Positions 1 to 18,443 are shown, counted from the stretch's first letter. The stretch: 19,503 bases of DNA from a virus (IMGVR_UViG_3300005836_000011:64001-83503); one strand, 5' to 3'. Program-made: numbers and translations. Notes: generated from the sequence alone by a model not told the origin.

Positions 1-1
1 T

Positions 2-442
2 CGCCGCAAGACTGAGGCTTGGACGTTTGAGGCACAGCAAGCCCTCGCTGCTACTGGTGAGGACGACCTGCGCGACGTTATTTCACAGGTTCACTCGACG
101 AATCCCACGCCCGAAGAAGTGCGCGAGATTCGCGAGAGTGTGAAGCTCGCCAAGCTCGACCCGGCTGAGGCGGCTGAGGCTGCCAAAGCAAAGGCAAAGC
201 GCGAGAGGGAGACGGCAGCAAGCAAGACTGAGGAGCTTGCTACTTCCCTCAAGCCGATGTTGAAGAAGGTTCGCAGCGATTCGGAATTCGCCGCGTTTCT
301 CCTCGGAGTCGAGATCGGCATTGCACATCGCGATGCCAAGCTAATCGGAAACGCAGTCAAGCAGGTTCGGCAGCAACGCGACGCAGGAGCGAAGGCCGTG
401 CAGACGGCAGCCGCCAAGCTCGCAGAAAAGACTGCCGCGTAA
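2..442 (+). CDS. Hypothetical Ala/Lys-rich helical protein, 5'-truncated by window edge
   Basis: Frame of ORF 119..442 is open back to base 2; TAA at 440-442 followed by a strong terminator. Confidence 0.75.
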   Translation, partial: RRKTEAWTFEAQQALAATGEDDLRDVISQVHSTNPTPEEVREIRESVKLAKLDPAEAAEAAKAKAKRERETAASKTEELATSLKPMLKKVRSDSEFAAFLLGVEIGIAHRDAKLIGNAVKQVRQQRDAGAKAVQTAAAKLAEKTAA

Positions 443-480
443 CACCACTACTTCCCGCCAAGCCACACTCTCGCATTACA

Positions 481-511
481 GCCCCGGAGCTTCGGCTCCG
501 GGGCTTTTTTT
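481..511 (+). terminator. Rho-independent terminator
   Basis: GCCCCGGAGC-TTCG-GCTCCGGGGC perfect 10-bp stem, C(UUCG)G loop, then T7. Confidence 0.93.
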
Positions 512-556
512 GTGCCCGGATTCGGGCGGCCGAGCGGGGAAGTTCTAGGTTCCTAG

Positions 557-589
557 ACGTACGCGCGCACGCACGCGCGCACGCGCGCG
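557..589. repeat. Alternating purine-pyrimidine tract (potential Z-DNA)
   Basis: ACGTACGCGCGCACGCACGCGCGCACGCGCGCG, 33 nt of unbroken RY alternation. Confidence 0.8.
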
Positions 590-612
590 AGGGGGACGGC
601 TGGACGCGGCCG

Positions 613-948
613 GATTCATGCACGTTCATGGAGCTCGAGCTCCGGCCGGGCGCCGGAGTCATGCACGTTCATGCACGCCCGGAGCGGCCGAGATTCATGC
701 AGGTTTCCGGAGCGCGCAGGATTCGTGTAGGTAGGTCTAGGAACCTAGAGCTCCTCGAGCCGGATTCTCACGCCAGCGTGAAGTCTGGAGCCGGCCGGAT
801 TCATGCAGGATCGGAGTGGCGGCCATTCATGTACGTTCGGGCGGGCCGAGATTCATGCAGGGTAGCCCCTGGCCGGGGCTCGAGTCATGCAGGATTCGGA
901 GCCGTCTGGATGCATACATGTTCTCAGAAATGGCTACAGTCATGCTGC
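613..948 (+). repeat. Cluster of about 9 imperfect direct repeats GA(T/G)TCATGCA(G/C)G in a probably non-coding region
   Basis: Copies starting at 613, 656, 692, 720, 798, 824, 850, 882, 937. Confidence 0.8.
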
Positions 949-972
949 TTATGCACTAGTACCTGCTATACT
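944..972 (+). promoter_or_regulatory. Putative sigma70/SigA-type extended -10 promoter P1
   Basis: TGc-TATACT at 964-972; homologous to 5144-5172 and 11554-11582; upstream of first small-gene run. Confidence 0.65.
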
Positions 973-1019
973 TTAGATAGTGAGGGAACGCGTTAGGCGC
1001 CTCACGGGAAAGGAGATCC

Positions 1020-1319
1020 ATGCTCACGGAACACTCTGTGACTTATGGAGATCCCGGCGGAAGGCACACCGTCATCACTCGTTCGATCTATGGGCCGGGA
1101 CGCGAAGATCGCGACCGCAGAATTCTCGGCACAGAGATCACGGCGGAGAGGTGGTTCGAGGGTGAGATGGCTGGATGGAAGTTCATCGAGTCATGCACAG
1201 AGACCCGGCAGTTCGGCCACATCTCTGAGGCGCAGGCCTGGATGGACGAGATGCTCCACGCCTGGGATCTCGCGCAGGTCAAGAAGTCGGGCGGAACGAA
1301 GCTCGTCGTTCTCTCCTGA
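1020..1319 (+). CDS. Hypothetical protein (99 aa)
   Basis: GAAAGGAG RBS at 1008-1015, ATG start. Confidence 0.85.
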   Translation: MLTEHSVTYGDPGGRHTVITRSIYGPGREDRDRRILGTEITAERWFEGEMAGWKFIESCTETRQFGHISEAQAWMDEMLHAWDLAQVKKSGGTKLVVLS

Positions 1320-1411
1320 CTCGCTGCCATCCCTGCCGATGCAAGCTGTCGGCTGGGATGGGAGCGTCTAGGAACCTAGATTGCTCCATCCTCGATCGAA
1401 AGGAGTTGGCA

Positions 1412-1726
1412 ATGTCCACTCTCGAACGGTTGATCGAGGAGGCCGAGAAGATCGCAGGCGACGGTAACTCTATCGTCGTCTGGGATTCCAGGGATACCGC
1501 CTATGGCGGAACTCGCCTGGAGATTCAGCCCGCTCCGCTCGGTGGCTACCGGGCAATCATGCAAGACGGCGCCGGCATTTGCACGTCTATCTGGCGTCCT
1601 GATTGCAAGATGGTCGAAGCTGCCATGAGCGCGCTGGATGCGTATCTCGGCATCCTCAATCCCAAGATCGAGTCACCGCCGATCTACGTTCGGCAAGTCG
1701 ACTCGAGCGTCTGGGAACTGCTCTAG
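1412..1726 (+). CDS. Hypothetical protein (104 aa)
   Basis: Start reassigned to ATG 1412 after GAAAGGAG RBS; follows dyad site 1367. Confidence 0.85.
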   Translation: MSTLERLIEEAEKIAGDGNSIVVWDSRDTAYGGTRLEIQPAPLGGYRAIMQDGAGICTSIWRPDCKMVEAAMSALDAYLGILNPKIESPPIYVRQVDSSVWELL

Positions 1727-1807
1727 CCTGCCTGCCCTACACGGATGCGTGCACGATTCGTGTAGGGAGGGGAGTCTAGGAACCTAGATTCCGAACGAAG
1801 GAGAGTC

Positions 1808-2083
1808 ATGCCGCTCATGACGCAGCTTCACGATCGCGGCGGCAAGCTCCGAAGTATCCCGTGGTCATGGGAAGATCGCATGATCCTCGCGGAGTACGTT
1901 CTCCTCGACGGCGGTACAGTCGGGGATGCGAAGGCTCCTGAGGACTGGGGTCTGCTCAACATGGGGTACATCGGTGCCGGTTGCGATCACACCTTCGCGA
2001 ACACCTTTGGCTACTGCCAGGTGGACACGAAGAAGGCGATCTGGGTGCGCCCAGGTCAGCGTTACCACGAGTACCGCTCTTAG
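1808..2083 (+). CDS. Hypothetical protein (91 aa)
   Basis: GAAGGAG RBS; follows dyad site 1775. Confidence 0.85.
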   Translation: MPLMTQLHDRGGKLRSIPWSWEDRMILAEYVLLDGGTVGDAKAPEDWGLLNMGYIGAGCDHTFANTFGYCQVDTKKAIWVRPGQRYHEYRS

Positions 2084-2162
2084 CCTGCCTGCCCCGCCGG
2101 GATTCATGCATGACCCCGACGGGGAGGAGAGTCTAAGAACTTAGACTCGGAAAGGAGTCCTC

Positions 2163-2414
2163 ATGACCGAGGACGTCGTCGTCTACAAGATCAACTGCGA
2201 CGACTACCGGACAGAACCGGAGTTTCCATCGGTCGGGAGGGACACACTCGAGGTGGCAAAGGAGTTCTGTCGGCGCCCCAAGTGGCCGTACAAGCTCTCG
2301 GATCACTTCATCGGTGTAGACGACTGGGGTCATGGCAACGTCGTCTGCGCCACGCCGTCCTTCTCGAACTGGATCGGTCAGTCGTTTCGCGAAGTGAAGC
2401 GCACGCTGCACTAG
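2163..2414 (+). CDS. Hypothetical protein (83 aa)
   Basis: GAAAGGAG RBS; follows dyad site 2132. Confidence 0.85.
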   Translation: MTEDVVVYKINCDDYRTEPEFPSVGRDTLEVAKEFCRRPKWPYKLSDHFIGVDDWGHGNVVCATPSFSNWIGQSFREVKRTLH

Positions 2415-2501
2415 CTTCTCGATCCTGCTACCCGCAGATGCGTGTGGGCGCAGGGTCGAGAGTCTAGGAACTTAGACTAGACTCCGAAAGGAGGTGGAAC
2501 G

Positions 2502-2627
2502 ATGCGCGGATCGGTAACGACCATGCTCATCGTTGTCGTTGTGTTCGTGGCGGGTTTCTTTCTGCTTGCTCGAGCAGCAGACCAGGAGTTCCGTTCACAA
2601 GAGTGCCGTCTAACCTGCACTCCGTAG
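2502..2627 (+). CDS. Small membrane protein (41 aa, MRGSVTTMLIVVVVFVAGFFLLARAADQEFRSQECRLTCTP)
   Basis: Not in ORF track; GAAAGGAGG RBS after dyad site 2463; one hydrophobic segment. Confidence 0.75.
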   Translation: MRGSVTTMLIVVVVFVAGFFLLARAADQEFRSQECRLTCTP

Positions 2628-2701
2628 GGAAAGGCTGCCATCCTCGCTGACTTGTGCTGCGGGGATGGGAGTCTAAACTTAGACTTCGGGAAGGAGGCTT
2701 T

Positions 2702-3016
2702 ATGGCCGATCTTTCCTGGGAAAGCGTCTCCGGGCGCGATGATCCCGAACAGCGATTCCGCCTTTATCGCCGAGACTACACAGGCGAGAGAACGCTCATC
2801 GCGACGTGCGCGAGCGAGGAAGCTGTCGGGGTGGCGATATGTCAGCTCGGACGCGAGGGAACGTGGCTCGATTGCGCTCTCGGCATTCTGGATACTCGTC
2901 CTGCGGAGGGCGATCCCAAGTGGATTGTCCTACCGTGGGAGGCCAGCGCCAAGAACGTGCATGAAGCTGCGCGCACGCTCGGGAAAGCGCGTCGCAAGAG
3001 TCGTCTAGGAACCTAG
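2702..3016 (+). CDS. Hypothetical protein (104 aa), ends RLGT* within dyad site
   Basis: AAGGAGG RBS at 2691-2697, ATG 2702 in frame with ORF 2654..3016. Confidence 0.85.
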   Translation: MADLSWESVSGRDDPEQRFRLYRRDYTGERTLIATCASEEAVGVAICQLGREGTWLDCALGILDTRPAEGDPKWIVLPWEASAKNVHEAARTLGKARRKSRLGT

Positions 3017-3095
3017 GCGGTTCTCATTCCCGTCGATTCATGCGGCGGGGATGAGAGTGGGGGAAAGCCCCGCTCGGAACCAGAAGGAGGCTCTT

Positions 3096-3353
3096 GTGGA
3101 CCGTAGAGAGGTCTGGGAGCAAATCGTCTGGACGCTCGAGCAGAAGTTCACCTCTGGCGAGTTCGACGAGGGTGAGTTTCGTGTTGCCAACAATCCGGCA
3201 ATGCGTAGCATCACCATCATTGAGAACTCGACCTCGCAGGCGTTCATGCTGCTCGACGTCACTGGCGCGACGTTTGGGGGTGGAAGGAATCCTGGCGACG
3301 CCATCGTCGTGCAGCTTCCCGTCCATCACAGCGCGAAGGTGCTAGGAACCTAG
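3096..3353 (+). CDS. Hypothetical protein (85 aa), ends VLGT* within dyad site
   Basis: GAAGGAGG RBS, GTG 3096 in frame with ORF 3051..3353. Confidence 0.8.
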   Translation: MDRREVWEQIVWTLEQKFTSGEFDEGEFRVANNPAMRSITIIENSTSQAFMLLDVTGATFGGGRNPGDAIVVQLPVHHSAKVLGT

Positions 3354-3428
3354 CCCCCAGTTGCCATCCCCTCGGTTCGGAGGGGATGGGAGCTGACAAT
3401 CGTTAGTTCCGAACCCGAAAGGAACGAG

Positions 3429-3656
3429 ATGCTGACTTTCATCATCCTCGTGTCTTTCGTGGTCGTGTGCATCCTCGTGCTTGCTCTGCGCGAGTTCTCG
3501 CTTCGGCGCAAGGCCGAGGTCGAGTGGCTCGAGGAGCAGATCGAGGAGGACGTCGTCGCTGGAGTGTTCGATTGGGATTACTCCGGTCTGACGAGGATGG
3601 ATGTGCCGGGGAAGTATCCGGCGCTCCGCACACGCTCCACGAAGGTGCACGTCTAG
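3429..3656 (+). CDS. Small N-terminally membrane-anchored protein (75 aa)
   Basis: GAAAGGA RBS; hydrophobic N-terminus LTFIILVSFVVVCILVLAL; stop inside dyad site 3652. Confidence 0.8.
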   Translation: MLTFIILVSFVVVCILVLALREFSLRRKAEVEWLEEQIEEDVVAGVFDWDYSGLTRMDVPGKYPALRTRSTKVHV

Positions 3657-3660
3657 GAAC

Positions 3661-4227
3661 CTAGACCCCCCGTGCTTTTTCAGGCGGGGGGTCCTTTTTT
3701 GTGCTCTCAAAGAGGTTCGTGTGCAAGTTGCGCGGGATCTCCGCTGCTCTTGCTCGTTGCCACAAGGAGGGCTCGTGTCCGAGGTAGTGGCAGATTCGTG
3801 TGCCGAGAGCCACGTCTAAGTCCTCGACCCAGTACGAGATGTGCGTTCGGCCGATCAGACGTTCATGTATGAGTGCGTGCCACTTGCGCTGGAACTTCAG
3901 TGCCTGGTTCGGAGCTGGTGAGATGTGTACATGCTGGCGCGCGAAGGTTGTGTACCCCGATTCCGGTACATGGAAGAACTCATGTCGTTCGAGTGATGCC
4001 GCAGAGAGCTTGAGGTTACGCCACTGATGCAGAATGAGTAGGTCGGCCGGCGCTTCATTCAAGTAGGGTGCGGCAAGCCAGGATGATTCTCCGTAGGGAG
4101 TTTCCCAATCGTGATCGCCGTGCAGGTTGAATGCATTCTCATGCAGCGTAGGGATGCCGAGAGCCGTGAAGAAAGCCGCGGCATACAGTGTCCCGGAGCG
4201 TGGAGCGGATACGACAAGCAGCCTCAC
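3661..4227 (-). CDS. Sulfotransferase-like protein (188 aa)
   Basis: N-terminal LLVVSAPRSGTLY matches the PAPS-binding 5'-PSB loop (xxPRSGT) of sulfotransferases; GTG start. Confidence 0.7.
   Translation of the reverse strand: MRLLVVSAPRSGTLYAAAFFTALGIPTLHENAFNLHGDHDWETPYGESSWLAAPYLNEAPADLLILHQWRNLKLSAASLERHEFFHVPESGYTTFARQHVHISPAPNQALKFQRKWHALIHERLIGRTHISYWVEDLDVALGTRICHYLGHEPSLWQRARAAEIPRNLHTNLFESTKKDPPPEKARGV
3664..3700 (+). terminator. Rho-independent terminator ending first small-gene run
   Basis: GACCCCCCG...CGGGGGGTC 9-bp stem followed by T6; overlaps 3' end of convergent gene. Confidence 0.8.
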
Positions 4228-4495
4228 ATGCTAAGAACCTAGCAACCTTGCACAATCCCTACACATCGACTCCCAGCGTAGCTTTAGCGCACCACAGCGA
4301 CAGCGAAGTGTTCCCATCTTCTACCGCCGGCGTGATGTGGATTCATGCAGCTTTGCGAGTGCTGTTACCGCCAGCGTGAAGGTTGCTGCCACGATATTGG
4401 TGGTGATGCATGTTTTGCAAACGTTGCAGCAGACAGTCGCGCTCTGGCCAGCGTCTGCGTAGCGCGCTGCTGTCAATCGAAGATTCATGCAGGTT

Positions 4496-5062
4496 CTATT
4501 TTCGAGTGTCTATGAGGACATGGGCACGTAGATCTGATTGCAACTTCGATATTTGAATCGCCTGATGCTGCTGCTGTGTCTCGAGCAGTGTGATTCGCCG
4601 TTCTACTATTGGTTTGTCTCGATTCCAGGCAGATTCACGCTGAATCTGCTGTGAGACATCAGCTGCAGTGATGCCCTGACGAATGATCTGTCCAACTCCT
4701 ATCGCGATCAATGTTGCCATGATCCCGGCAGCCGCAACCCACGCCGTTTGTCGTCCGCGCCCCTCATTCTGGCGCTGTGAAAGAACCTCCACCTGCTTCT
4801 GGAGTAGATCGTGCGCCGAGAGCGGCGTAAACCCACGCTCACGATCATTCATGGCCCCGCGCCATTCGTTCTGAGACTGCCGAACGCGCTCTGCTTCGGC
4901 TTCCGCCTTGTCGATCGCTTTCTGCGATGACAACATCGCGAGGTTGACCTGCTTCTCTCGCTCTGCCAGGACTTGGTCGATCCTGCGAATCTCAGAGTCA
5001 AATAGATCCTTCAGAGACTGCAGATCCGTTGCATTGGCTACGCACCGTTCGTGATCATTCAT
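4496..5062 (-). CDS. Coiled-coil protein with one central transmembrane helix (188 aa)
   Basis: Helical Q/E/K-rich segments flanking AWVAAAGIMATLIAIGVG. Confidence 0.7.
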   Translation of the reverse strand: MNDHERCVANATDLQSLKDLFDSEIRRIDQVLAEREKQVNLAMLSSQKAIDKAEAEAERVRQSQNEWRGAMNDRERGFTPLSAHDLLQKQVEVLSQRQNEGRGRQTAWVAAAGIMATLIAIGVGQIIRQGITAADVSQQIQRESAWNRDKPIVERRITLLETQQQHQAIQISKLQSDLRAHVLIDTRK

Positions 5063-5143
5063 ATGAGAAATGATCGCTGCTGATTAGGTCTTGATGCGCG
5101 CATATTCATGCAGGATCCGTGAACGGGGTTGAGGGTTGATGAT

Positions 5144-5172
5144 TTGGCTTACACACTAGTATCTGCTATGAT
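5144..5172 (+). promoter_or_regulatory. Putative sigma70/SigA-type promoter P2
   Basis: TTGGCT (5144-5149), 17 bp, TATGAT (5167-5172) with extended TG. Confidence 0.7.
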
Positions 5173-5265
5173 TTATGCAGGTGGAGATGTATCCACTGTT
5201 GGTTCTACCCGCAGCCATTTCCGGTGCTGCGGAGACTCTAGGAACCTAGACCCGAAAGGAGAGCC

Positions 5266-5451
5266 ATGAGCGCAAGAGACGCGCTTTTGAAGGCTCGGGA
5301 GGCATGGGCGAAGCAGTCTATGCAGTTGGAACTCGAGCTGGAAGAGCCTCCAGACGAGCCATGCATCGGCACTTGCGGCCGCTGCGGGGCTTACTGGGAC
5401 ATGCGCTACTACGAGACGTGTCCGCCACCGTGTGGTGGTTACGTTGGCTAA
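5266..5451 (+). CDS. Small Cys-rich, zinc-ribbon-like protein (61 aa)
   Basis: GAAAGGAG RBS after dyad site 5237; CGRC...CPPPC. Confidence 0.8.
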   Translation: MSARDALLKAREAWAKQSMQLELELEEPPDEPCIGTCGRCGAYWDMRYYETCPPPCGGYVG

Positions 5452-5650
5452 GCGCAAGAAACACACGTGGGAGGTCGGCGTCGAGAACCTGCGTGCTGAA
5501 TACGAACGCCAGCACCTGCTAGTGACCTCCGCCATCGAATTGGATCCGACCTACAAACGACTTGCCGAGTCGTTTGGGGACGATCCGGAGTTGTGTCAGC
5601 TTCTGACCCAGATGCACCTCAACAGCCCTCGGGGCAGAAGAAAAAGGTAA
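5444..5650 (+). CDS. Hypothetical protein (about 68 aa; start uncertain, 5432 or 5444)
   Basis: Fills the gap in the + strand run; overlaps upstream stop. Confidence 0.6.
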   Translation: MAKRKKHTWEVGVENLRAEYERQHLLVTSAIELDPTYKRLAESFGDDPELCQLLTQMHLNSPRGRRKR

Positions 5651-5672
5651 CTCCAGAGAAAGGAGTTTTGTT

Positions 5673-5885
5673 ATGCCTGCGACCTCGCCTGAGGCGATTG
5701 CGAGAGCTCGTGAGCGTTCTCGCATCCAGTCGCGTAATCGCATCAAGACGTTTCCCGAGTACGTGGAAGCTGTAACGGAGACCACGCTGGTAGTGAGCTG
5801 CGAGCGTTGCTTCGCGTTCTTCGATACACCGCGTCGGCGCGGTGGACGGATTCGGAGGCTTTGCGACGAATGCAACAGCGACTAG
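5673..5885 (+). CDS. Small zinc-finger protein (70 aa)
   Basis: GAAAGGAG RBS; CERC...CDEC; similar to 11695..11910. Confidence 0.8.
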   Translation: MPATSPEAIARARERSRIQSRNRIKTFPEYVEAVTETTLVVSCERCFAFFDTPRRRGGRIRRLCDECNSD

Positions 5886-5976
5886 CGCGTTTCCCGGTCC
5901 TGCCACCTATATTTTTTTTTTGGGCGCGGGGCCGGGAGCTGCGATCTAGGATCCTAGCTCCAGAAGGAGGTGATCC

Positions 5977-6282
5977 ATGCCGTTAGATCCGATGGTATGG
6001 AAGTTGCCGCCTTACATGCGCCGCTTCCCCGACTTCATTGCCGAAGTCTATGAGTCGGAGGAAACCGCACTCGTCGATCTTCTCGAGTTGTGGTTGTGGA
6101 AGTGGGACCTCGCGGACGTGCATCCGGTCTTCGGGCACGCACCGAACAACTTCAAGATGGCCGAACGGCTCGGTCTCGAGGTCGAGGACTATCTTCGCAT
6201 TGAAGAAGAGTCCAGGGCGGTGCTCGACAAGCTCGATACGGCGCTCGGTGAGAGCGATACTCACGAGATGCCAGAGTCTTAG
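5977..6282 (+). CDS. Hypothetical acidic protein (101 aa)
   Basis: GAAGGAGGT RBS after dyad variant 5945. Confidence 0.85.
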   Translation: MPLDPMVWKLPPYMRRFPDFIAEVYESEETALVDLLELWLWKWDLADVHPVFGHAPNNFKMAERLGLEVEDYLRIEEESRAVLDKLDTALGESDTHEMPES

Positions 6283-6364
6283 GGGCTTCGATCCCACGTC
6301 GGTTACCGCTGGCGTGAGGTCGTGGCGTCTAGGAACCTAGGCGTAAACAACAGAAAGGAAATAG

Positions 6365-6613
6365 ATGATTCCGCAAATCAAGTACTTGGACGTTGCTCCC
6401 TCCAAGATGGACGAGCTTGTCTTTGTCGGAGTGGCGCACCAGACCACGATTGAGGACGACGGAGAAATTATCTCGCTCTACATCTATCCCCACGAACAGC
6501 ATCCCGCCCGTTACGTGTGCGAGACAGAGGAACTCGACGTTCTAACTGCCTCTGCTGACATCAACAACAAAGGCAATCTGCAAGGCATCGAAGTCATCCT
6601 GAAAAGGAGGTGA
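6365..6613 (+). CDS. Hypothetical protein (82 aa)
   Basis: GAAAGGA RBS after dyad site 6328. Confidence 0.8.
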   Translation: MIPQIKYLDVAPSKMDELVFVGVAHQTTIEDDGEIISLYIYPHEQHPARYVCETEELDVLTASADINNKGNLQGIEVILKRR

Positions 6614-6614
6614 T

Positions 6615-6785
6615 ATGAGGTTGATTCTCAACTCAATGATCGAGAAGTGCCCATTCCTCATCATGGTCGCTGCGCACTATCGGGACGATGGCACATGCAA
6701 GTGCGATGATCCCAAAGAGCGTGCTCGCATGATCGCAGAGTGGGGCTACACCGAGGAATCGTTCAAAAGAGCTGGCATCGTCTAA
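6615..6785 (+). CDS. Hypothetical protein (56 aa, MRLILNSMIEKCPFL...KRAGIV)
   Basis: Not in ORF track; AAGGAGGT RBS; TAA stop lies within dyad site 6781. Confidence 0.75.
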   Translation: MRLILNSMIEKCPFLIMVAAHYRDDGTCKCDDPKERARMIAEWGYTEESFKRAGIV

Positions 6786-6807
6786 GAACCTAGACAGGAG
6801 GGAGTTC

Positions 6808-7074
6808 ATGGCAACGTATGAGGTCTCGCTCGTCATCGACGGCATGGCGGGTGAAGTAGAGACTCATCGTAACGAGGGCGCTGCGTATGCAGCCGCGGAC
6901 AGGCTTGCGGAAGAGGCGAAGGATGTCGCCGACAAGCAGATCAAGTGGAATGTGTACGTCACTCCGCACTACTGCCGTCCGGACGAGGACGAATGCATGT
7001 GCGTTTCGTGGATGCCAGACCATCGACCCTATCGCTCCGGAAAAGGAGTGCAACCAGAAAGGGGTACGTCGTGA
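6808..7074 (+). CDS. Hypothetical protein with Cys/His cluster (88 aa)
   Basis: GGAGGGAG RBS; HYC...CMC...H. Confidence 0.8.
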   Translation: MATYEVSLVIDGMAGEVETHRNEGAAYAAADRLAEEAKDVADKQIKWNVYVTPHYCRPDEDECMCVSWMPDHRPYRSGKGVQPERGTS

Positions 7075-7424
7075 ACGCAAGAGGAACCAAGATCAAGGCT
7101 TCGGTCGAGGGACTGAAGGTTCTGATTCGCGCCAAGCTCGACCTGGAGACGGCCGAATACGAGAAGGACCAGGCGGAGTACGAGAAGAAGATCATCGCGT
7201 GGGCTGAGAACGTCAAGACAAAGATCGCGGCCATGACAGTCGACGAGATCATCGGCGACAAAGACAGGTACGGAAGGCTTGCATACCAAGCCTTTGAGGG
7301 TCGTCCTGAACCACCGCATCCAGTGGACGCGAACCATCAGCGCCTACTGAACATGCTGGAACTCACGAGCGATGACGTGATCGTGCTCTCGCTCGATTCC
7401 GAGTTCTACCGCTACCTCTCGTAG
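7071..7424 (+). CDS. Hypothetical coiled-coil protein (117 aa)
   Basis: GTGA overlap with upstream gene, GAAAGGGG RBS; in frame with ORF 6945..7424. Confidence 0.8.
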   Translation: MNARGTKIKASVEGLKVLIRAKLDLETAEYEKDQAEYEKKIIAWAENVKTKIAAMTVDEIIGDKDRYGRLAYQAFEGRPEPPHPVDANHQRLLNMLELTSDDVIVLSLDSEFYRYLS

Positions 7425-7433
7425 TCCAGACAC

Positions 7434-7465
7434 GGGGGCGCCCGATCTGTGTGTCGGGTGCCCCC
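7434..7465. other. GC-rich intergenic hairpin without U-tract
   Basis: GGGGGCGCCCGA...TCGGGTGCCCCC. Confidence 0.6.
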
Positions 7466-7494
7466 ATTACGCACGTCCTGAAAGGAAAAGATCC

Positions 7495-7872
7495 ATGTCT
7501 GATTTCAAATGGCAAATGCAGGAAAGGATCGACGCCGGCATGAATCCTGACGCTGCCTACGAGGCCACGCGCGAGAGCTATCTCGACGCGGCCGATCAGA
7601 AGCGCAAGGAGGATAAGGAGACACCACGTGAGAGCCGCTTCACGAAGGGTCAGAAAGTCATGCGCTATCTCTCGTCAGCGCGTATCCCCATGCCCATGAT
7701 CGTCACGAACGTGCACGAAGGACTCGTCTCATGTGGCCCCTGGACTTTCGACGATGCATCGGGAATCGAGGAAGATCCCGAACTTGGTTGGGGAGCATCT
7801 TCAGGCATCACTGGTTCGTGGATCGAGGAGATCAGCGAAGCCGAGTGGGAAGCACAGCGGGTAAAGACATGA
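7495..7872 (+). CDS. Hypothetical protein (125 aa)
   Basis: GAAAGGA RBS, ATG start. Confidence 0.8.
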   Translation: MSDFKWQMQERIDAGMNPDAAYEATRESYLDAADQKRKEDKETPRESRFTKGQKVMRYLSSARIPMPMIVTNVHEGLVSCGPWTFDDASGIEEDPELGWGASSGITGSWIEEISEAEWEAQRVKT

Positions 7873-8099
7873 AGCCGTACCGCACTTTCGCACCAGCGCG
7901 CGGAATCCCTGTCGTAGGACGGGGATCTCGGTCTGCTATGCCCGGATCCGATCCTCTGGCTGCAATCATCGCAAAGGAGAATCGCGGCCGGCTTCATCTT
8001 CGTGCACATGCACCGGAGCCACTTGAGCCTCCCCAACCCACTACGTCACCCGTGCGCCGTCGTTTAGGGAGGCGCGTGGTGAATCAACGGCACTTGTGA
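7869..8099 (+). CDS. Hypothetical basic/Pro-rich protein (76 aa)
   Basis: ATGA overlap upstream and GTGA overlap downstream. Confidence 0.6.
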   Translation: MKPYRTFAPARGIPVVGRGSRSAMPGSDPLAAIIAKENRGRLHLRAHAPEPLEPPQPTTSPVRRRLGRRVVNQRHL

Positions 8100-8314
8100 T
8101 GGATTGTTTGTATCAACAGCAAAAAAGGAAGGCCTACCGATTCCTGCACAACGAGTCAGACGAATCTCTGCTGAAGAGACGCAGGCAGCATGAGGAGGAG
8201 TGTGAACAAGGATATTATGGGGATGCTGGAACGCTTGCACGAGGGAGACGACTTATCTGGATGCGCACAACTCGTATGGAAATCGCGGCTAGGAACCTAG
8301 AAAGGGGTTTCTAA
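8096..8314 (+). CDS. Small protein of the E[AIL]xxR(G)L family (72 aa)
   Basis: GTGA coupling; C-terminus WMRTTRMEIAARNL; reads through dyad site 8288. Confidence 0.7.
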   Translation: MMDCLYQQQKRKAYRFLHNESDESLLKRRRQHEEECEQGYYGDAGTLARGRRLIWMRTTRMEIAARNLERGF

Positions 8315-8776
8315 ATGAGCAAGCTTGCACTACCGTGCATCAAGTGCGGAAAACCTTTGCGCAACTGCGACGAGGACATAGACAACCAACCATCCGGCGG
8401 AACGGAGTTCACAACTTACGGACACTACGGTTCCACCATTCATGATGAAGTGATGTTCCTCTACGAGGGGGCTGAGAAGGAGAATCTTCTTGAACTCGTC
8501 GTGAACATCTGCGATACGTGCATCCTGCGAGCAATCGACGCTGGCATAATCCAGTCCCGATCCAAGGAGGTCATACTTAGCCGGCATCCTGTCACGCCTG
8601 AATCTCGAGCATGGGTGCTCGCGCAGAACGAGAAGCAGTACGGCTCTGCCTGGGGAGATGATGAGCCGGTCGATTACGACGCCGAGATGCTCAAAGCGGG
8701 CTGGTCTGAGGAGTTGATAGGAGATGACGAGGTGCGCGAAGCGCATGTCTTTCCTGATGATGAGCTAAGAACTTAG
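8315..8776 (+). CDS. Zinc-finger-containing protein (153 aa), ends LRT* within dyad site
   Basis: CIKC and CDTC pairs; TAAATG junction. Confidence 0.8.
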   Translation: MSKLALPCIKCGKPLRNCDEDIDNQPSGGTEFTTYGHYGSTIHDEVMFLYEGAEKENLLELVVNICDTCILRAIDAGIIQSRSKEVILSRHPVTPESRAWVLAQNEKQYGSAWGDDEPVDYDAEMLKAGWSEELIGDDEVREAHVFPDDELRT

Positions 8777-8791
8777 AAGGGAGCAGAAAAG

Positions 8792-8899
8792 ATGTTTCGT
8801 AACTTTTCTTTGGGCGTTCTTTTCGGCGCCCTCATTATCTTCGCCCCAACTTGGGCAATCATCGTTTTCATTGCCTATCTACTGTTGCCAAGATCATGA
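8792..8899 (+). CDS. Small membrane peptide (35 aa, MFRNFSLGVLFGALIIFAPTWAIIVFIAYLLLPRS)
   Basis: Not in ORF track; GAAGGGAG RBS; ATGA overlap with next gene. Confidence 0.7.
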   Translation: MFRNFSLGVLFGALIIFAPTWAIIVFIAYLLLPRS

Positions 8900-9282
8900 C
8901 TGGACATACGCCTTGGAGCGAAATCAAGCACAAGCGGGATGATCCGGCAGACGACGTGCGGATCGTGCGGGGGACACTGTTGATAGATGGGTATGCGAAT
9001 CGGGACGCCCTCGCCGCCCTTGCTCGCCTGGAAGCTCGCATCGCGGAGTTGGAACGGATCGCACCTATTGGTCAAGAAAGCGAAATGGAACGAGCGCAAC
9101 GCAAACGCGCTGAAGCCGCCGAAGCCCGCGTGCGCGAACTTGAAGCGGCGCTGGAGATTATCGCCACTACGACTTATCCCGCCATCTACATCGGTAGACG
9201 CGACGATGGAACAGAGATGTACGGCGGCAGCGATGACGCCTCACGATTCGCCCGCGCCGCACTCAAGCAAGCCGAGGAGTGA
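8896..9282 (+). CDS. Hypothetical protein with coiled coil (128 aa)
   Basis: ATG 8896 in frame with ORF 8851..9282; coupled on both sides. Confidence 0.75.
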   Translation: MTGHTPWSEIKHKRDDPADDVRIVRGTLLIDGYANRDALAALARLEARIAELERIAPIGQESEMERAQRKRAEAAEARVRELEAALEIIATTTYPAIYIGRRDDGTEMYGGSDDASRFARAALKQAEE

Positions 9283-9656
9283 GCGTGACTCCCATCTTCA
9301 TGGTTGCCCTACTCATCTATCTCGTCGTGGCGTCATACGTCGCGCATGAGTACGGACACGCGTTCACGGCCAAGGCGCTGGGCGGGAAGCTGCACGGCTG
9401 GCGCTTCTACTGGTATGCAGTCGGGTACGCCATCGAAGTGCCGAGTGGAAACCGTCTACGTCTAACTGCGCTTGGAGGGATAGTTGTCACGCTGGCGTTA
9501 GCTGGCGTGGGATGGATGCTGACGCCGGCGTGGTGGGCGGTGTGCCTGATGGTATTCAACCTGGCACTTGCATTTTGCAATCTCATCCCTGTTCCCGGCA
9601 CGGACGGATGGATCATCCTCAAAGGCAAGGCAACATCTAGGAACTTAGAACCCTGA
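9279..9656 (+). CDS. Minimal site-2 protease-like (peptidase M50) membrane metalloprotease (125 aa)
   Basis: HEYGH within a hydrophobic helix and NLIPVPGTDG (NxxPxxxxDG); several hydrophobic segments. Confidence 0.85.
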   Translation: MSVTPIFMVALLIYLVVASYVAHEYGHAFTAKALGGKLHGWRFYWYAVGYAIEVPSGNRLRLTALGGIVVTLALAGVGWMLTPAWWAVCLMVFNLALAFCNLIPVPGTDGWIILKGKATSRNLEP

Positions 9657-9671
9657 AAGGGGGGGTCGGAA

Positions 9672-9896
9672 ATGGAAGTCACTGACGCGTATCAGGAGTA
9701 CCTTTGTGCCAAGCATGAAGTTGCTCCAGAGGACAAGATCGCGCAACTAACGCTGCCCGTTTCACATATGGCAGCGATCGCCAACGTGATCTTGGAAGCA
9801 CTCGATGGGGCGGAGGGCAAATTGAGCGCCCCCACCATGCGTAAGTGGGATTCGATCATGCGCTCTATAGCGAAGGCGATTGAGGGGGCGGTGTGA
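9672..9896 (+). CDS. Hypothetical protein (74 aa)
   Basis: GAAAGGGG RBS after dyad site 9636. Confidence 0.75.
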   Translation: MEVTDAYQEYLCAKHEVAPEDKIAQLTLPVSHMAAIANVILEALDGAEGKLSAPTMRKWDSIMRSIAKAIEGAV

Positions 9897-10114
9897 TGCG
9901 AGAAGCCGTAGTGGGTGATCGCATCGAACTCGACTTCATGCTCAATGATCCCGCCCCTATCGAAACAGGTGCACGAGGAACGATCAGGCGTATTCAAGCT
10001 CTTGACTGGGCTAAATGCATACAGATCGACGTTGAGTGGGACAACGGACGAACGTTGTTCCTGTGCTGTCCTCCCGACAAGTACCACATCATCCAAAGGG
10101 AGGTGAAGTGGTGA
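9893..10114 (+). CDS. DUF4314-like small beta-barrel protein (73 aa)
   Basis: Pattern GDRIEL..M.NDP.PI..GARGT...QIDVEWDNGRTL resembles DUF4314 (recognised by eye). Confidence 0.65.
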   Translation: MMREAVVGDRIELDFMLNDPAPIETGARGTIRRIQALDWAKCIQIDVEWDNGRTLFLCCPPDKYHIIQREVKW

Positions 10115-10488
10115 TGGATGCTGCAGATATTGCAAGTCTGCAGAAGCTAGACAAAGAACTTCCCGACGGTCGCTACTTCGATATCACTGGCAAGCCCATC
10201 CTGTTTTCTGAATGGGCAATCCGTTTCGAGGACAAGAGATACCAGGTCATAATCCAGGAGGACAAGGGGAAAGTCCTGGTTTCGACAGTATGGCTTGGCA
10301 TGGATCACGGTTGGGGAAGATCCGCGCCGATCATCTTCGAGACCATGATCTTTGGTGGCTACTACGACCAGTACCAAGAACGAGCTTCAACGCTCGAGGG
10401 TGCGTTGGCGTGCCACATTCAAGCGCGCAGGCTTGCATTCAGCTGGCGAGCGCGCTTCCTGGGCCTGCTGCGTAGGAGACGGAGATGA
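10114..10488 (+). CDS. Conserved phage-type hypothetical protein (124 aa)
   Basis: GGAGGTG RBS; VSTVWLGMDH...IFETMIFGG pattern recalled from phage hypothetical proteins. Confidence 0.75.
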   Translation: MDAADIASLQKLDKELPDGRYFDITGKPILFSEWAIRFEDKRYQVIIQEDKGKVLVSTVWLGMDHGWGRSAPIIFETMIFGGYYDQYQERASTLEGALACHIQARRLAFSWRARFLGLLRRRRR

Positions 10489-10685
10489 AGACCTGCGAGG
10501 GATCCTTGGCGAGCGATCAACGTTGCATCATCGCTTTCGATGACGCTCAAATCGTGGAGGGCGTTACGAAGCATGCCGATCCTGAGTGGTGGAAAGAAAT
10601 TCGCAATGGCGCCTACAACATCGCTTATCTGCGACGTTGGGGCACGCAACTCAGACGCGAAGCACGAAGGCGAGGAATCTTGTGA
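10485..10685 (+). CDS. Small protein of the E[AIL]xxRG[LI] family (66 aa)
   Basis: ATGA overlap; WGTQLRREARRRGI. Confidence 0.75.
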   Translation: MKTCEGSLASDQRCIIAFDDAQIVEGVTKHADPEWWKEIRNGAYNIAYLRRWGTQLRREARRRGIL

Positions 10686-10873
10686 GCGAGAAATCCAAAC
10701 TCAACCTGGAGATAAATCAGCTTCGGCTAGAAGTAGCCCAGGCTGCCGGAAAGCTTCGCGCGGCGTACAACCACGAGGACTGGACAACTTTCCATTTGCA
10801 ACTCGGGATGCTGCAAGGTCTTGGCATGCGCGTGTATGAGGCGAATGCAAAACTCGACCGTCTAGGAACCTAG
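10682..10873 (+). CDS. Hypothetical helical protein (63 aa), ends RLGT* within dyad site
   Basis: GTGA overlap; in frame with ORF 10586..10873. Confidence 0.75.
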   Translation: MSEKSKLNLEINQLRLEVAQAAGKLRAAYNHEDWTTFHLQLGMLQGLGMRVYEANAKLDRLGT

Positions 10874-10888
10874 AGAAAGGAGGTTCAA

Positions 10889-11149
10889 TTGCCCGAAAGG
10901 CGGTATACGCCCGAAGAATCCTCTCGGTTTCATGATCTACGTCATAGTTCCTACTCGATCGGCAGGAAAAGACAGGAAGAAGCTGCTCGAAAGGAAACTG
11001 ATTTGGACCTCCACCAACAGTTGGCTAAATACGTAGACAAAAGTGATGAGTGGTTTAGTAGAAGAACCCTAGCTCGCGTGAAGAGGCGGGTCTATATTCA
11101 AGAGGCTCTCCGGCGTGGCCTAATTCTTCCGAAAGGAGTGAGTAAATGA
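10889..11149 (+). CDS. Small protein of the E[AIL]xxRG[LI] family (86 aa)
   Basis: GAAAGGAGG RBS, TTG start; VYIQEALRRGL. Confidence 0.75.
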   Translation: MPERRYTPEESSRFHDLRHSSYSIGRKRQEEAARKETDLDLHQQLAKYVDKSDEWFSRRTLARVKRRVYIQEALRRGLILPKGVSK

Positions 11150-11562
11150 ACGAGCCAACAGCCCAGGATCTTGCGCGGTGGGCGAAATGGGACGATCTAC
11201 GCGCCCGTGAAGCCGCGGCTACGAGTGACGAGGAACGTGCTGCTCTTGTAATCGAGCGAGACAAACTTGATGCTGAGAGCATCAAGGAGATGCTGCTCCA
11301 GGAAATGGATACGGAGCCTCAGTGGTACTGGCTCTCGTTTCGAGACCCCGATACCAACACCAATCTCGGAGTTGCCATCGTCGAAGGAGGAGGGATCGTC
11401 GAAGCATCACTTAACGCCAAGCTCGCCAAGTGCAATCCCGGAGGAGAAATCCTGGGCTATGTACTTGACTCCGAGAACTTGCCGCCGGAAGAACTGCGCT
11501 ATCGCCTGCTCTCGGAGCAGGAACTCGAAGACGCTGGTCTCTTGGCTACCGATTCTGCTTAG
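11146..11562 (+). CDS. Hypothetical acidic protein (138 aa)
   Basis: AAGGAG RBS, ATGA overlap. Confidence 0.8.
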   Translation: MNEPTAQDLARWAKWDDLRAREAAATSDEERAALVIERDKLDAESIKEMLLQEMDTEPQWYWLSFRDPDTNTNLGVAIVEGGGIVEASLNAKLAKCNPGGEILGYVLDSENLPPEELRYRLLSEQELEDAGLLATDSA

Positions 11563-11582
11563 AGCCTGAAACCTGCTAAGAT
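11554..11582 (+). promoter_or_regulatory. Putative extended -10 promoter P3
   Basis: CTGCTTA-N9-ACCTGC-TAAGAT; aligns without gaps to P1. Confidence 0.6.
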
Positions 11583-11694
11583 ATAGTTAGTGCCCTTTGC
11601 GGGCACTCTCTGCGTTTATCCACACCCTGCGTCTAAGAACTTAGACGCCAACCCGATAAGGAAGGGCGTGATGAGTAACGCTGAGTATTAGGCC

Positions 11695-11910
11695 ATGTCG
11701 CACGCCCTGGAAAGGGGGTCGCCATTGTCCAGAAGCCCAGACAAGAAGCTCGACAATGTCGGCTGGTGCGAGCGTTGTCTGCGTCCATTCGATCGTCCAA
11801 CACCCTCCAAGCTCGGAGGGTGGAAGGTGTGCGACGACTGTATGGCTCACAACACGAGCGCTCGTGCACGTCGCAGAAAGGAGAGAAGCCTGGCTCACAA
11901 AACGAAGTAA
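11695..11910 (+). CDS. Small zinc-finger protein (71 aa; an RBS-linked in-frame start at 11671 is interrupted by TAG 11689-11691)
   Basis: CERC...CDDC; similar to 5673..5885. Confidence 0.7.
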   Translation: MSHALERGSPLSRSPDKKLDNVGWCERCLRPFDRPTPSKLGGWKVCDDCMAHNTSARARRRKERSLAHKTK

Positions 11911-11952
11911 CTGATCTAGGAACCTAGACCAACAAATCCGAAAGGACATAAG

Positions 11953-12954
11953 TTGACTCAGATTATGGATTGGAACATCATCGAGGCTATCGAGCGGGGC
12001 GCGTATCGCGTTCTCTTGTACGGGCCTCCGGGAACGGGCAAGACGACCAGTGCATACAACGCAGCGAAAAAGCTCGGCAAGAGCGTCTACAACATCACGC
12101 TCTCGGACGAAACTCCTGCCGCCGAGTTGCGCGGTCACTTCATCCCAATGGGATCGGAGTGGAAGTGGATGCATGGTCCTGCGGTGCGCGCATACCTGGA
12201 AGGCGCCGTGCTGCTCTTGGATGAGATCGACAAGGCCTCGCAGGATGCGCTCGACTTCCTGCACGGTCTGCTCAACGACCCCGATGTGGCGCGTCTCACG
12301 CTTCCGAATGGCGAGACGATCACTCCCGCACCGGGCTTCCAGGTCATCGCCACGATGAACGGAGAACTCGACGACCTGCAGCCCGCTCTGCAGGATCGGT
12401 TTGCCATCGCCATCGAGGTGCGTAAGCCCCATCCTGACGCCATCAAGGCGCTCCCTGCCGATCTGCAGAGTGCAGCCAAGACGGTCGAGGACTACGAGAA
12501 CGCAGAGAGGCCGGCCACGCTCAGGCGCTGGGCGGCTTTCGCACTTCTGCGGGAGTTGGAGGAAGTCGGTCCTCAGAATGCGGCCAAGGCCGTGTTCGCG
12601 CACCGCGCAGGGGAACTGTTGGACGCCATCTCCTTCAAGGCCACCAAGGGTGGAGTGGCGACGAAGAGCAAGACCGCCAAGCGTGCCAAGAGCAAGCCCG
12701 CCACCGCTGCCATGAAGGCGAAGGCCAGGGTTATTCGCGGCGAGGAAGGATTCTGCACTTGCGAGGACTGCGTGGAGGGCCGTGCGTGGGATTGGGCTGG
12801 CCATACGTACAACATCTCCGTGATCGAGGAGAACGATGGCGTGTACGAGTGCCCACAGTGTGGCGAAGAGCACCCCGGAACGCTCGAGGCGCTCACGTGC
12901 TGCTTCCAGGAGGATCGCTGGCTCATCGAGGGACGTAAGCTCGGGTTGGTCTAG
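11953..12954 (+). CDS. MoxR/CbbQ/CobS-like AAA+ ATPase (AAA_5 type) with Cys-rich C-terminal extension (333 aa)
   Basis: Walker A GPPGTGKT, Walker B LLLDEID, sensor-1 IATMN, Arg-finger ALQDRF; GAAAGGA RBS, TTG start. Confidence 0.92.
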   Translation: MTQIMDWNIIEAIERGAYRVLLYGPPGTGKTTSAYNAAKKLGKSVYNITLSDETPAAELRGHFIPMGSEWKWMHGPAVRAYLEGAVLLLDEIDKASQDALDFLHGLLNDPDVARLTLPNGETITPAPGFQVIATMNGELDDLQPALQDRFAIAIEVRKPHPDAIKALPADLQSAAKTVEDYENAERPATLRRWAAFALLRELEEVGPQNAAKAVFAHRAGELLDAISFKATKGGVATKSKTAKRAKSKPATAAMKAKARVIRGEEGFCTCEDCVEGRAWDWAGHTYNISVIEENDGVYECPQCGEEHPGTLEALTCCFQEDRWLIEGRKLGLV

Positions 12955-12956
12955 TC

Positions 12957-13208
12957 ATGGACTGCCGAGCACCATCAGCGAAAACATGGCGTCTGAACTG
13001 TCCAGACTGGAGCGATGACTACGCCGTCCAGGAACTTCGTCGAGCATGGGATCGACTGGAAGGCGGAAAACCGTGGCATCAAGGCCCTCCTTACAACACC
13101 ACCCATCACGACTGGACAAACTTCCGAGCCTCCACGCTGAGGGAGGCACGCAAACGCGGGCTTGACCTCTCGGTCACCGGAAAGGCCGCGCATAAGGGTA
13201 GGAGGTGA
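12957..13208 (+). CDS. Small protein of the E[AIL]xxRG[LI] family (83 aa)
   Basis: DWTNFRASTLREARKRGLDLSVT; tandem paralog of next gene. Confidence 0.8.
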   Translation: MDCRAPSAKTWRLNCPDWSDDYAVQELRRAWDRLEGGKPWHQGPPYNTTHHDWTNFRASTLREARKRGLDLSVTGKAAHKGRR

Positions 13209-13212
13209 GTGC

Positions 13213-13431
13213 ATGGAATGCAGATCACCATGCCTCGAAGAACATCGTGAGAACATGGAAAACTACGCTGATGAGGACGTCCTCGACGAACTCGAACGTG
13301 CCTGGGAGCATCCTCGTAGGGAAGAAACAGGCGACTGGCAGAGGCAGGACTGGTCGACGTTCCGTGCAATCACGCTACGCGAGGCACGTAGACGCGGACT
13401 CGACCTTTCGGTAACGAAGGCACGCCGATGA
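13213..13431 (+). CDS. Small protein of the E[AIL]xxRG[LI] family (72 aa)
   Basis: AGGAGGTG RBS, ATG 13213 in frame with ORF 13162..13431; DWSTFRAITLREARRRGLDLSVT. Confidence 0.8.
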   Translation: MECRSPCLEEHRENMENYADEDVLDELERAWEHPRREETGDWQRQDWSTFRAITLREARRRGLDLSVTKARR

Positions 13432-13622
13432 GCGAACCTCGCCATAAGGTCATGTCTGCTGCAATCCATACCAATCTACGCGTTTGGAGTAACTACTTGC
13501 GCGAGGCCCAGAACTCCTTAATAACGGCCTGCCTAAGAGAGGTGTATCCCGCAGATGCTTACCACGACCTGTGGAGGAGACTCGTAAGGCAGGAGGCAGC
13601 TAGACGAAAGCTAGGAACCTAG
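13428..13622 (+). CDS. Small protein of the E[AIL]xxR family (64 aa), ends KLGT* within dyad site
   Basis: ATGA overlap; WRRLVRQEAARRKL. Confidence 0.75.
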   Translation: MSEPRHKVMSAAIHTNLRVWSNYLREAQNSLITACLREVYPADAYHDLWRRLVRQEAARRKLGT

Positions 13623-13832
13623 ATGGCATGCCTAGGCAGGTATATCGGGAATTATCGGAATGGTGTTTCCGTAAAGACCGACAAAATCCTGCTTCTCAAT
13701 GCGAAGGGTCTCACGGATGACGGTAAAGGCTACTGGTACATACACACCAGACCAGAGTTGCGCTTGTACATGCGACTCGTGAGGCAGGAAATTCATCGAC
13801 GTGGACTCAAAGTTCCGACGCTAGGAACTTAG
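13623..13832 (+). CDS. Small protein of the E[AIL]xxRG[LI] family (69 aa), ends TLGT* within dyad site
   Basis: TAGATG junction; YMRLVRQEIHRRGL. Confidence 0.75.
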   Translation: MACLGRYIGNYRNGVSVKTDKILLLNAKGLTDDGKGYWYIHTRPELRLYMRLVRQEIHRRGLKVPTLGT

Positions 13833-13843
13833 AAGGAGGTTCA

Positions 13844-15340: not shown

Positions 15341-15380
15341 CCAGAGTCTAGGAACCTAGACAGGAAAGGAGAACCTCTCT

Positions 15381-16489: not shown

Positions 16490-16515
16490 TATGATGGTCG
16501 CGAAAGGGGTGATAG

Positions 16516-16740: not shown

Positions 16741-16827
16741 GAACCTAGCTATGACGTACTTGAACACCGTGTCGTAGGTGTGGTAGATTTCCACCTACAC
16801 TATGTTCACCGACCTGAAAGGAGAAAG

Positions 16828-18044: not shown

Positions 18045-18053
18045 CAGAAAGCG

Positions 18054-18080: not shown

Positions 18081-18111
18081 TCTCCCCTACTGACCTGAAA
18101 GGAGGTCGGGA

Positions 18112-18425: not shown

Positions 18426-18443
18426 ACTGAAGGAGGTGAAGAG

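Follow-up and report, generated by a model that had tools for sequence, protein, structure and literature searches.

What are the repeated hairpin and dyad units that separate eight consecutive short genes in the genome of an uncultivated virus? We studied these units in a stretch of 19,503 nucleotides, hereafter the window, which is the last 19.5 kb (64001-83503) of the single-contig, 83,503-bp virus record IMGVR_UViG_3300005836_000011 (56.5% G+C); coordinates are those of the window unless a relative is named. The eight small genes lie on the positive strand at 1020-3656 and have strong Shine-Dalgarno sites. After each of them comes the dyad TCTAGGAACCTAGA or one of its variants, in the same orientation as the gene. 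Gene calls and dyad scan thus agreed with a first-pass annotation, made from the sequence alone, that had described eight consecutive short genes with a dyad after each; its stop-to-dyad distances for the first five genes were measured likewise as 47, 48, 48, 48 and 44 nt. None of the eight array proteins matched a Pfam family.

Our preferred reading, which we hold to be somewhat probable, is that 1020-3665 is a promoter-proximal, hypervariable block of an early operon, whose units are intercistronic RNA processing or stability elements that double as recombination linkers. The eight genes would be transcribed from one promoter, P1, to one canonical terminator. The unit between them would be a composite of an imperfect stem-loop of ~45 nt, the dyad, sometimes a short second hairpin, and a strong ribosome binding site. 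The stem-loops would act in the sense RNA, splitting the polycistronic early mRNA into protected pieces, and would not themselves be terminators, promoters or recombination sites; the dyad would be a site with a function of its own. Being repeated, and more strongly conserved than the intervening genes, the units could also serve as short homology patches for ordinary recombination, which would delete, insert, swap and reorder genes.

Relatives of the virus were collected from metagenome assemblies with two anchors, a MoxR-type ATPase (11953-12951; homologs at 75-87% identity) and gene 1 (seven homologs). Both anchors together gave the contigs L021, L024, L025, L026, L027, L029, L030, L031 and L032. 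L021 overlaps L025 and both are one phage; L030 and L031 are versions of a single phage.

Hairpins that behave like sense-strand RNA structures

The hairpins were compared as a set of 31 intergenic units from seven phage contigs. These were mostly defined by gene and dyad coordinates and not by fold, a genome-wide hairpin scan at -20 kcal/mol being too permissive in GC-rich DNA. Their stems had a mean length of 16.8 bp (range 11-25 bp). The sense strand folded better than the antisense strand in 30 of the 31 units, with a mean difference of -6.7 kcal/mol versus -2.7 in composition-matched shuffles, and the sense folds contained 65 G-U pairs versus 10 in the antisense folds.

The units can be sorted into families, within which the outer stem is the same from phage to phage while the inner stem varies. 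The outer stems are CCATCCC/GGGATGG in family A, CCTGCCC/GGGAGG in family B, ATCCTGC/GCAGGGT in family C and CCCCAGAG/CTGGGGGG in family D; in the L025 and L032 orthologs of hairpin 1, the outer stem was kept and the inner stem replaced. The related subtypes seen in the first-pass annotation are real and correspond to families A and B, found within this genome only at the array (1327-3364). Alignment of the hairpins, which that annotation had suggested, revealed covariation. Compensatory double changes were present in 5 of 16 pairs of family C, with 100% of cells paired, and in 6 of 14 pairs of family B, with 97% paired. Sliding the partner columns lowered pairing to 38-70%, and none of 500 shuffles reached the observed covariation score of these two families, each of which also has one invariant U-G pair. 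The hairpins behave like sense-strand RNA structures under selection, and the earlier suggestion of RNA elements finds support in this covariation and in the strand-specific pairing.

Each of the first five gaps holds a stable hairpin without a U-tract, as had been described, with folding energies of -21 to -32 kcal/mol and z-scores of -3.0 to -6.2. The distance from stop codon to hairpin is 0-7 nt, and the dyads lie 0-25 nt upstream of the ribosome binding site. The order gene, stop, hairpin, dyad holds for genes 1-5, although the fifth dyad is a degenerate 12-mer. It does not extend to the end of the array: the stop codons of genes 6-8 lie inside the dyad, and after genes 6 and 7 a long and a short hairpin follow the dyad. 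Module order therefore varies along the array. Length, which the first-pass annotation had considered constant, is not strictly so either, for the stop-to-dyad gaps of the relatives span 40-61 nt with a mode of 47-48. The similar units proposed at 5886-5944 and 6283-6327 do fold, at -34.6 and -25.0 kcal/mol. In the hairpin at 5886-5943 the loop includes a run of ten T (5908-5921) that neither the L021 nor the L026 ortholog has.

The dyad is distributed over the whole genome

A search allowing up to 3 mismatches gave 41 strand-wise matches to the dyad versus 1.0 expected, a number reached by none of 200 shuffles. Genome-wide there are 34 dyad sites, 22 of them within the window. Since only about 9 of the 34 have a hairpin beside them, all within ~6 kb downstream of P1 and of a second promoter-like site, P2 (5144-5172), the hairpin is a non-obligatory partner of the dyad, which we predict to be a separate regulatory site acting genome-wide. 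The same dyad occurs in most relatives, with its central AA nearly always on the coding strand (24 of 24 sites in L021).

The more distant relatives L027 and L029 carry GGATCC-centred dyad variants: at 5238-6625 of L027 and 7057-7865 of L029, palindromes such as CCTGGGATCCCAGG replace the GGAACC dyad, and the order is palindrome, long hairpin, and short hairpin with a conserved GCAAACGT loop. The only reverse-oriented dyad of the window phage, at 544-557, marks the left edge of the control region and adjoins an alternating purine-pyrimidine tract of CG/CA repeats (~35 nt, 558-592). TAG is the stop codon of 17 of the 32 well-supported genes at 1020-19053 and is partly supplied by the dyad; apart from this, the genome is poor in CTAG (182 observed versus 315 expected).

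Genes are exchanged between conserved units

The gene order of the window array (1-2-3-4-5-6-7-8-terminator) was compared with x-1-3-4 in L032, 1-a-b-c-8-d-e-7-terminator in L030 and 1-f-8-h-terminator in L025, where letters denote genes without a window homolog. L032 lacks exactly gene 2 and one unit relative to the window. In a three-way alignment, the unit that L032 has at this place corresponded to hairpin 1 of the window on its left and to the leader of gene 3 on its right, and the switch from one to the other fell inside the dyad. L025 is syntenic with window 1-5260: an upstream 261-aa protein and the iteron region are followed by the gene 1 homolog, a family A hairpin and dyad with a gap of 51 nt, a single unrelated gene of 48 codons that replaces genes 2-7, the gene 8 homolog, the terminator, reverse-strand genes and a second promoter. 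In L030, genes 7 and 8 are reversed in order. The homolog of gene 6 in L021 and L024 is ~16 kb further along, beside the homolog of window 19141+; at 19067-19144 the window has an open reading frame (ORF) that looks like a deletion remnant of this gene, with the intact, diverged copy being the one at 2702-3016.

The hairpin families are not tied to particular genes. Gene 1 is followed by family A in the window, L025 and L032, by family B in L030 and by family D in L029, and gene 3 is followed by family B in the window and by family C in L032. Units can even outdo genes in conservation: the unit at 3341-3428 (dyad, family A hairpin, short hairpin and ribosome binding site, ~90 nt) is ~88% identical to a unit of L030 with unrelated genes on both sides, and a family D unit is near-identical in L030 and L025, again between unrelated genes. 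In the second array, homology between L021 and L026 stops at the dyad of the unit equivalent to 6285-6341. At 2976 onward in L026, after the conserved hairpin and dyad behind the homolog of the window gene at 5977, there is a gene unrelated to that of L021 or of the window.

The first-pass annotation had compared the array with an integron and proposed modular gene capture or shuffling. Of this, shuffling finds support: the relatives differ by whole genes with their units, and order is swapped and a gene relocated among them. Relatives lacking unit-wise indels and hairpins lacking covariation were among the outcomes which that annotation had named as refuting it, and for both the analysis found the opposite. 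Site-specific capture finds no such support. An integron-like or other site-specific gene-capture array, with the hairpins as attC-like sites, would share with this locus the promoterless small genes in one orientation behind one promoter, the folded imperfect palindrome 3' of each, and the unit-wise gains and losses, yet we regard it as close to refuted. No match to tyrosine, serine or Y1-HUH recombinases (PF00589, PF00239, PF01797) was found in the complete genome, which extends the earlier observation that the window has none. The attC boxes are missing, as had been noted: GTTRRRY does not occur in 1020-3665, and both matches to RYYYAAC (1954 and 2608) are inside genes. The type of hairpin is not linked to the upstream gene, the mapped crossover is in the dyad and not in the hairpin, and it is the coding (top) strand whose folding is favoured, whereas an integron attC folds as bottom-strand single-stranded DNA.

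Transcription and translation signals

The claim of one promoter and one terminator for the array stood in its second part, since the terminator at 3666-3700 is canonical. P1 is a plausible promoter that scored under the threshold of our promoter scan; P2 was flagged by the same scan. A stem-loop in the leader of gene 1 may act as a 5' stabiliser of the early transcript.

Canonical intrinsic terminators were ruled out for the hairpins, none of which is followed by a U-tract of 7-9 nt: the 8 nt past them contain a mean of 1.7 T, versus 6-7 at the two canonical terminators of the phage, 3666-3700 and 480-511 (tail TTTTTTGT). A different proposal is that they are U-tract-less ('I-shaped') attenuating terminators that step down early transcription, with the dyad, and possibly GATTCATGCA, as operators or roadblocks for a shut-off regulator. 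We consider this unlikely, though it accounts for several features. The hairpins, which are GC-rich, start at 0-7 nt past a stop codon and are confined to the first ~6 kb past P1 and P2; dyads are spread over the genome and, like the L5 stoperators, point in the direction of transcription (contrast PMC3203893); and the loop motif is identical to the iterons of the control region. However, besides the missing U-tract, structures of this kind do not make purified mycobacterial RNA polymerase terminate even with NusA and NusG, the enzyme requiring a U-tract (PMC3993855), the operon ends of this phage use canonical terminators, and stems of 15-25 bp with internal mismatches and conserved U-G pairs are untypical of terminators.

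A promoter in each unit was likewise rejected, as the scan found no promoter-like site in any unit of 1020-3665 and flagged only P2. This bears on a second proposal, that the unit is a composite of promoter and operator like the ESAS (extended start-associated sequences) of Cluster K mycobacteriophages or the promoter-early stem-loops (PeSLs), the inverted repeat being a DNA operator and each gene having its own promoter. The arms of ~17 bp, the element of 46-47 bp directly upstream of a start-associated motif, the non-structural arm and the single orientation (PMC3203893, PMC11373665) all fit it, and the right half of the dyad with two more bases often reads TAGAYT, a TANNNT-like hexamer. Yet the units lack promoter-like hexamer pairs, at other dyads a T does not regularly follow the base after TAGA, the arms change by compensation without keeping an operator sequence, and the G-U pairs favour one strand; we judge this proposal distinctly improbable.

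The onset of the hairpins 0-7 nt after the stop could also suggest a translational-coupling relay, in which the outer stem is opened by the ribosome that halts there, its purine-rich 3' arm then pairs anew across the dyad, and the next ribosome site becomes accessible. In some units, e.g., 1356-1391, the post-dyad segment is complementary to the 3' arm, and blocking the first 13 nt past the stop in the model made the ribosome site more accessible, by over 0.1, in 8 of 30 units. The mean accessibility was nearly flat, however (0.43 to 0.48), with 3 of the 30 units going the opposite way, and flanking complementarity was no longer at hairpin-adjacent dyads than at others (p = 0.21). Neither the accessibility modelling nor the complementarity comparison supported the relay, which we find very hard to believe.

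The loop motif and the control region

About half of the hairpin loops in this phage, L025, L030 and L032 carry GATTCATGCA (window copies at 1755, 2101 and 3035). Upstream of P1, about ten direct repeats consist of the same motif, as GATTCATGCA(GG), which also flanks P2 (613-5181). Almost all copies are on the positive strand, and 13 of the 14 plus-strand copies in the genome fall at 613-5170. A bolder extension of our reading, which we put forward as speculative and rather improbable, would be a lineage-wide RNA regulon in which a phage protein would recognise both GAUUCAUGCA as presented by the hairpin loops and the identical sequence in the DNA iterons that lie upstream of P1 and P2, the units then being the recombinase-free gene-exchange grammar of an uncultivated actinophage clade. 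If true, promoter control would be coupled to the fate of each early mRNA segment.

Comparison with known systems

We rank PeSLs as the closest system in behaviour, and the start-associated sequences (SAS) and ESAS as the closest in layout and host group. PeSL cassettes were described in T4-type phages by Arbiol et al. (2010, PMC2839356; 2014, PMC4122927), who drew the integron comparison themselves (PMC2839356). As here, PeSLs are repeated stem-loop composites between small ORFans in a hypervariable early region, and close relatives gain, lose and replace genes between the motifs, with crossovers inside the motif and no dedicated recombinase. In contrast, PeSLs have a strong sigma-70-type promoter and a tested terminator stem-loop, whereas the present units have no promoter-like site and no U-tract, a 14-bp palindrome stands in the place of the promoter, and the host is an actinobacterium-type organism. 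A further hallmark of PeSL cassettes is that recombination between flanking motifs gives rise to mini-circles.

SAS and ESAS are known from actinophages of Cluster K of mycobacteriophages and Cluster EF of Microbacterium phages (PMC3203893, PMC11373665, PMC7302621). They share with our units a short conserved motif that lies a little way upstream of numerous start codons, in the non-structural arm and in one orientation, which in about half of the cases has directly upstream of it an element of ~46-50 bp with imperfect inverted repeats of 15-17 bp, kept despite a different downstream gene family. The size of our units (40-61 nt), their mean stem length and their position are similar to those of ESAS. 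The SAS itself is a 13-bp asymmetric sequence (GGGATAGGAGCCC) located 3-9 bp upstream of the start, where it overlaps the ribosome site; the dyad, by contrast, is a palindromic 14-mer upstream of that site. ESAS are now read as a SigA-like promoter with an operator-like repeat (PMC11373665); our units showed no promoter hexamers and no sequence similarity to them, and differ in forming several sequence families with RNA-type covariation and G-U pairs. Since a promoter and a tested terminator are lacking in comparison with PeSLs, and likeness in sequence to SAS/ESAS is lacking too, the finding is filed as a variant of PeSL- or ESAS-like systems.

The dyad alone is comparable with the 17-bp palindromes of Cluster O mycobacteriophages (PMC4351075) and the stoperators of Cluster A (PMC3203893), short sites with ~30 copies per genome at gene boundaries, the stoperators also following transcription in their orientation; neither system has long hairpin families.

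For the hairpins themselves we infer a role in processing or stabilisation, favoured because the layout parallels that of the T7 early region, where an upstream promoter region, a polycistronic early RNA, a related imperfect hairpin in each intergenic space and one closing terminator are likewise combined. Dunn and Studier reportedly demonstrated in 1973 that RNase III cleaves at the processing sites of that region. The T7 sites are imperfect double-stranded RNA of about two helical turns and have the same intercistronic position as the present stems of 11-25 bp (mean 16.8).

Several points weigh against the reading as a block of processing elements and recombination linkers. RNase III substrates typically have stems of ~20-22 bp and the stems of the units are mostly shorter, and no RNase III or dsRBD protein was found among the phage-encoded proteins. 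Part of the strand asymmetry is accounted for by a sense strand rich in G+T, and several of the 31 hairpins are mutual orthologs and not independent. The reading does not explain why the loop motif is that of the DNA iterons upstream of P1. As for recombination, only one clean crossover was mapped. In the comparison of L021 with L026, homology blocks ended within 45 nt of the start of a gene at 8 of the 12 dyad-bearing boundaries and at 10 of the 12 that have no dyad (Fisher p = 0.64), so that an enrichment of mosaic junctions at dyads was rejected. Because dyad-less boundaries are equally mosaic, the units and dyads are not required for mosaicism, and junctions track gene boundaries generally, as in most phages. 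In the same comparison seven block ends lay within 15 nt of a dyad centre, and at dyad-bearing boundaries the junction sits in the dyad.

Source genome and feature map

The record has direct terminal repeats and a completeness rating of 100%. The genes for its terminase, portal and capsid matched phage families, and its capsid protein is at most 36% identical to that of any isolate (Gordonia, Mycobacterium, Arthrobacter and Microbacterium phages); on these grounds the virus appears to be an uncultivated actinophage-like siphovirus without a close isolate. No DNA match to window 1-8000 was found among GenBank phages. A search of IMG/VR for close relatives with protein patterns of gene 1, the 261-aa upstream protein and a VWA protein, together with a 15-mer dyad scan, gave single chance matches only, and a scan of GTDB genomes for the dyad with a ribosome site gave one unrelated chance match and no prophage or host. 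A sulfotransferase-like gene was dropped as an anchor for relatives, its homologs being in cellular contexts and not in phages. The sole match to Rfam 15 in window 400-7200 was a chance one to a snoRNA (E 0.3, far under the gathering score). Proteins of RHH, winged-helix and ParB-like type are encoded at 16516-18044. Outside the window, at 18161-18247 of the genome, a 138-codon frame at the left arm's end gave a weak match to a helix-turn-helix resembling sigma-70 region 4 (19.3 bits, under the cut-off). The features of the two arrays are collected in Table 1.

Table 1 Features of the array and related elements in the window (aa, amino acids; UTR, untranslated region; energies in kcal/mol)
Feature	Position	Strand	Evidence or remark
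Promoter P1 (putative), extended -10 TGC TATACT at 964-972, weak -35	944-972	+	Sequence; aligns with P2 and the equivalent L021 promoter
5' UTR stem-loop (GTGAGG...CCTCAC) before the gene 1 ribosome site	981-1006	+	Sequence; L030 ~720-745 near base-for-base alike
Gene 1, 99 aa, conserved array head	1020-1319	+	Heads arrays in L025, L027, L029, L030 and L032 at 53-73% identity
Hairpin 1, family A, outer stem CCATCCC/GGGATGG	1322-1366	+	-31.7, z -5.2
Dyad 1	1367-1380	+	Crossover point of the gene 2 indel versus L032
Gene 2, 104 aa	1412-1726	+	Not in L032
Hairpin 2, family B, CCTGCCTGCCC/GGGAGGGGAG	1728-1774	+	-27.5, z -4.9; family covariation
Dyad 2	1775-1788	+	Dyad scan
Gene 3, 91 aa	1808-2083	+	L032 homolog 88% identical
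Hairpin 3, family B, GATTCATGCA in loop	2085-2129	+	-23.0, z -3.0
Dyad 3, symmetric variant TCTAAGAACTTAGA	2132-2145	+	Dyad scan
Gene 4, 83 aa	2163-2414	+	Homolog start visible at the L032 contig end
Hairpin 4, family C, ATCCTGC/GCAGGGT	2417-2461	+	-32.0, z -6.2; family covariation
Dyad 4	2463-2476	+	Dyad scan
Gene 5, 41 aa, hydrophobic	2502-2627	+	Gene call
Hairpin 5, family A	2635-2671	+	-21.0, z -3.5
Dyad 5, degenerate 12-mer, two central bases gone	2672-2683	+	Sequence
Gene 6, 104 aa, stop codon within dyad 6	2702-3016	+	Widespread family of small proteins, 106 representatives
Dyad 6	3004-3017	+	Dyad scan
Long hairpin 3024-3054 (GATTCATGC in loop), then short hairpin 3055-3075, both 3' of dyad 6	3024-3075	+	-35.8, z -4.5
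Gene 7, 85 aa, stop codon within dyad 7	3096-3353	+	Homolog closes the L030 array, 3' of the gene 8 homolog
Dyad 7	3341-3354	+	Dyad scan
Family A hairpin 3365-3388 and short hairpin 3389-3410	3365-3410	+	Fold
Gene 8, 75 aa, N-terminal membrane segment, stop codon within dyad 8	3429-3656	+	Homologs in L025 and L030
Dyad 8, doubles as stop codon of the convergent - strand gene	3652-3665	+	Sequence and dyad scan
Canonical terminator, 8-bp GC stem then U-tract, tail TCCTTTTT	3666-3700	+	Fold and sequence
Second-array unit, family C-like hairpin and GGATCC-centred dyad	5886-5958	+	-34.6, z -5.4; orthologs in L021 and L026
Second-array unit, hairpin with five G-U pairs and dyad	6285-6341	+	Fold, -25.0; orthologs in L021 and L026
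25-codon remnant of a gene 6 family member	19067-19144	+	10 of 17 residues (59%) identical to the N-terminus of the L024 homolog; syntenic place in L024/L021

Implications

Since nothing here points to dedicated machinery, the finding ranks below a genuinely new recombination system in importance. The units could serve as portable intercistronic insulators in the design of actinobacterial operons, and for the start-associated and extended repeats of actinophages in Clusters K and EF, which are still unexplained, they provide a lead that can be tested. It is among the ORFans of early regions that phages carry host-takeover and anti-defence genes, and their rapid exchange is poorly understood beyond the T4-type phages. 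What the present locus adds is a PeSL-like arrangement in actinophages, with linkers whose conservation exceeds that of the genes between them, gene sets that differ by whole units, and signatures at the level of RNA.

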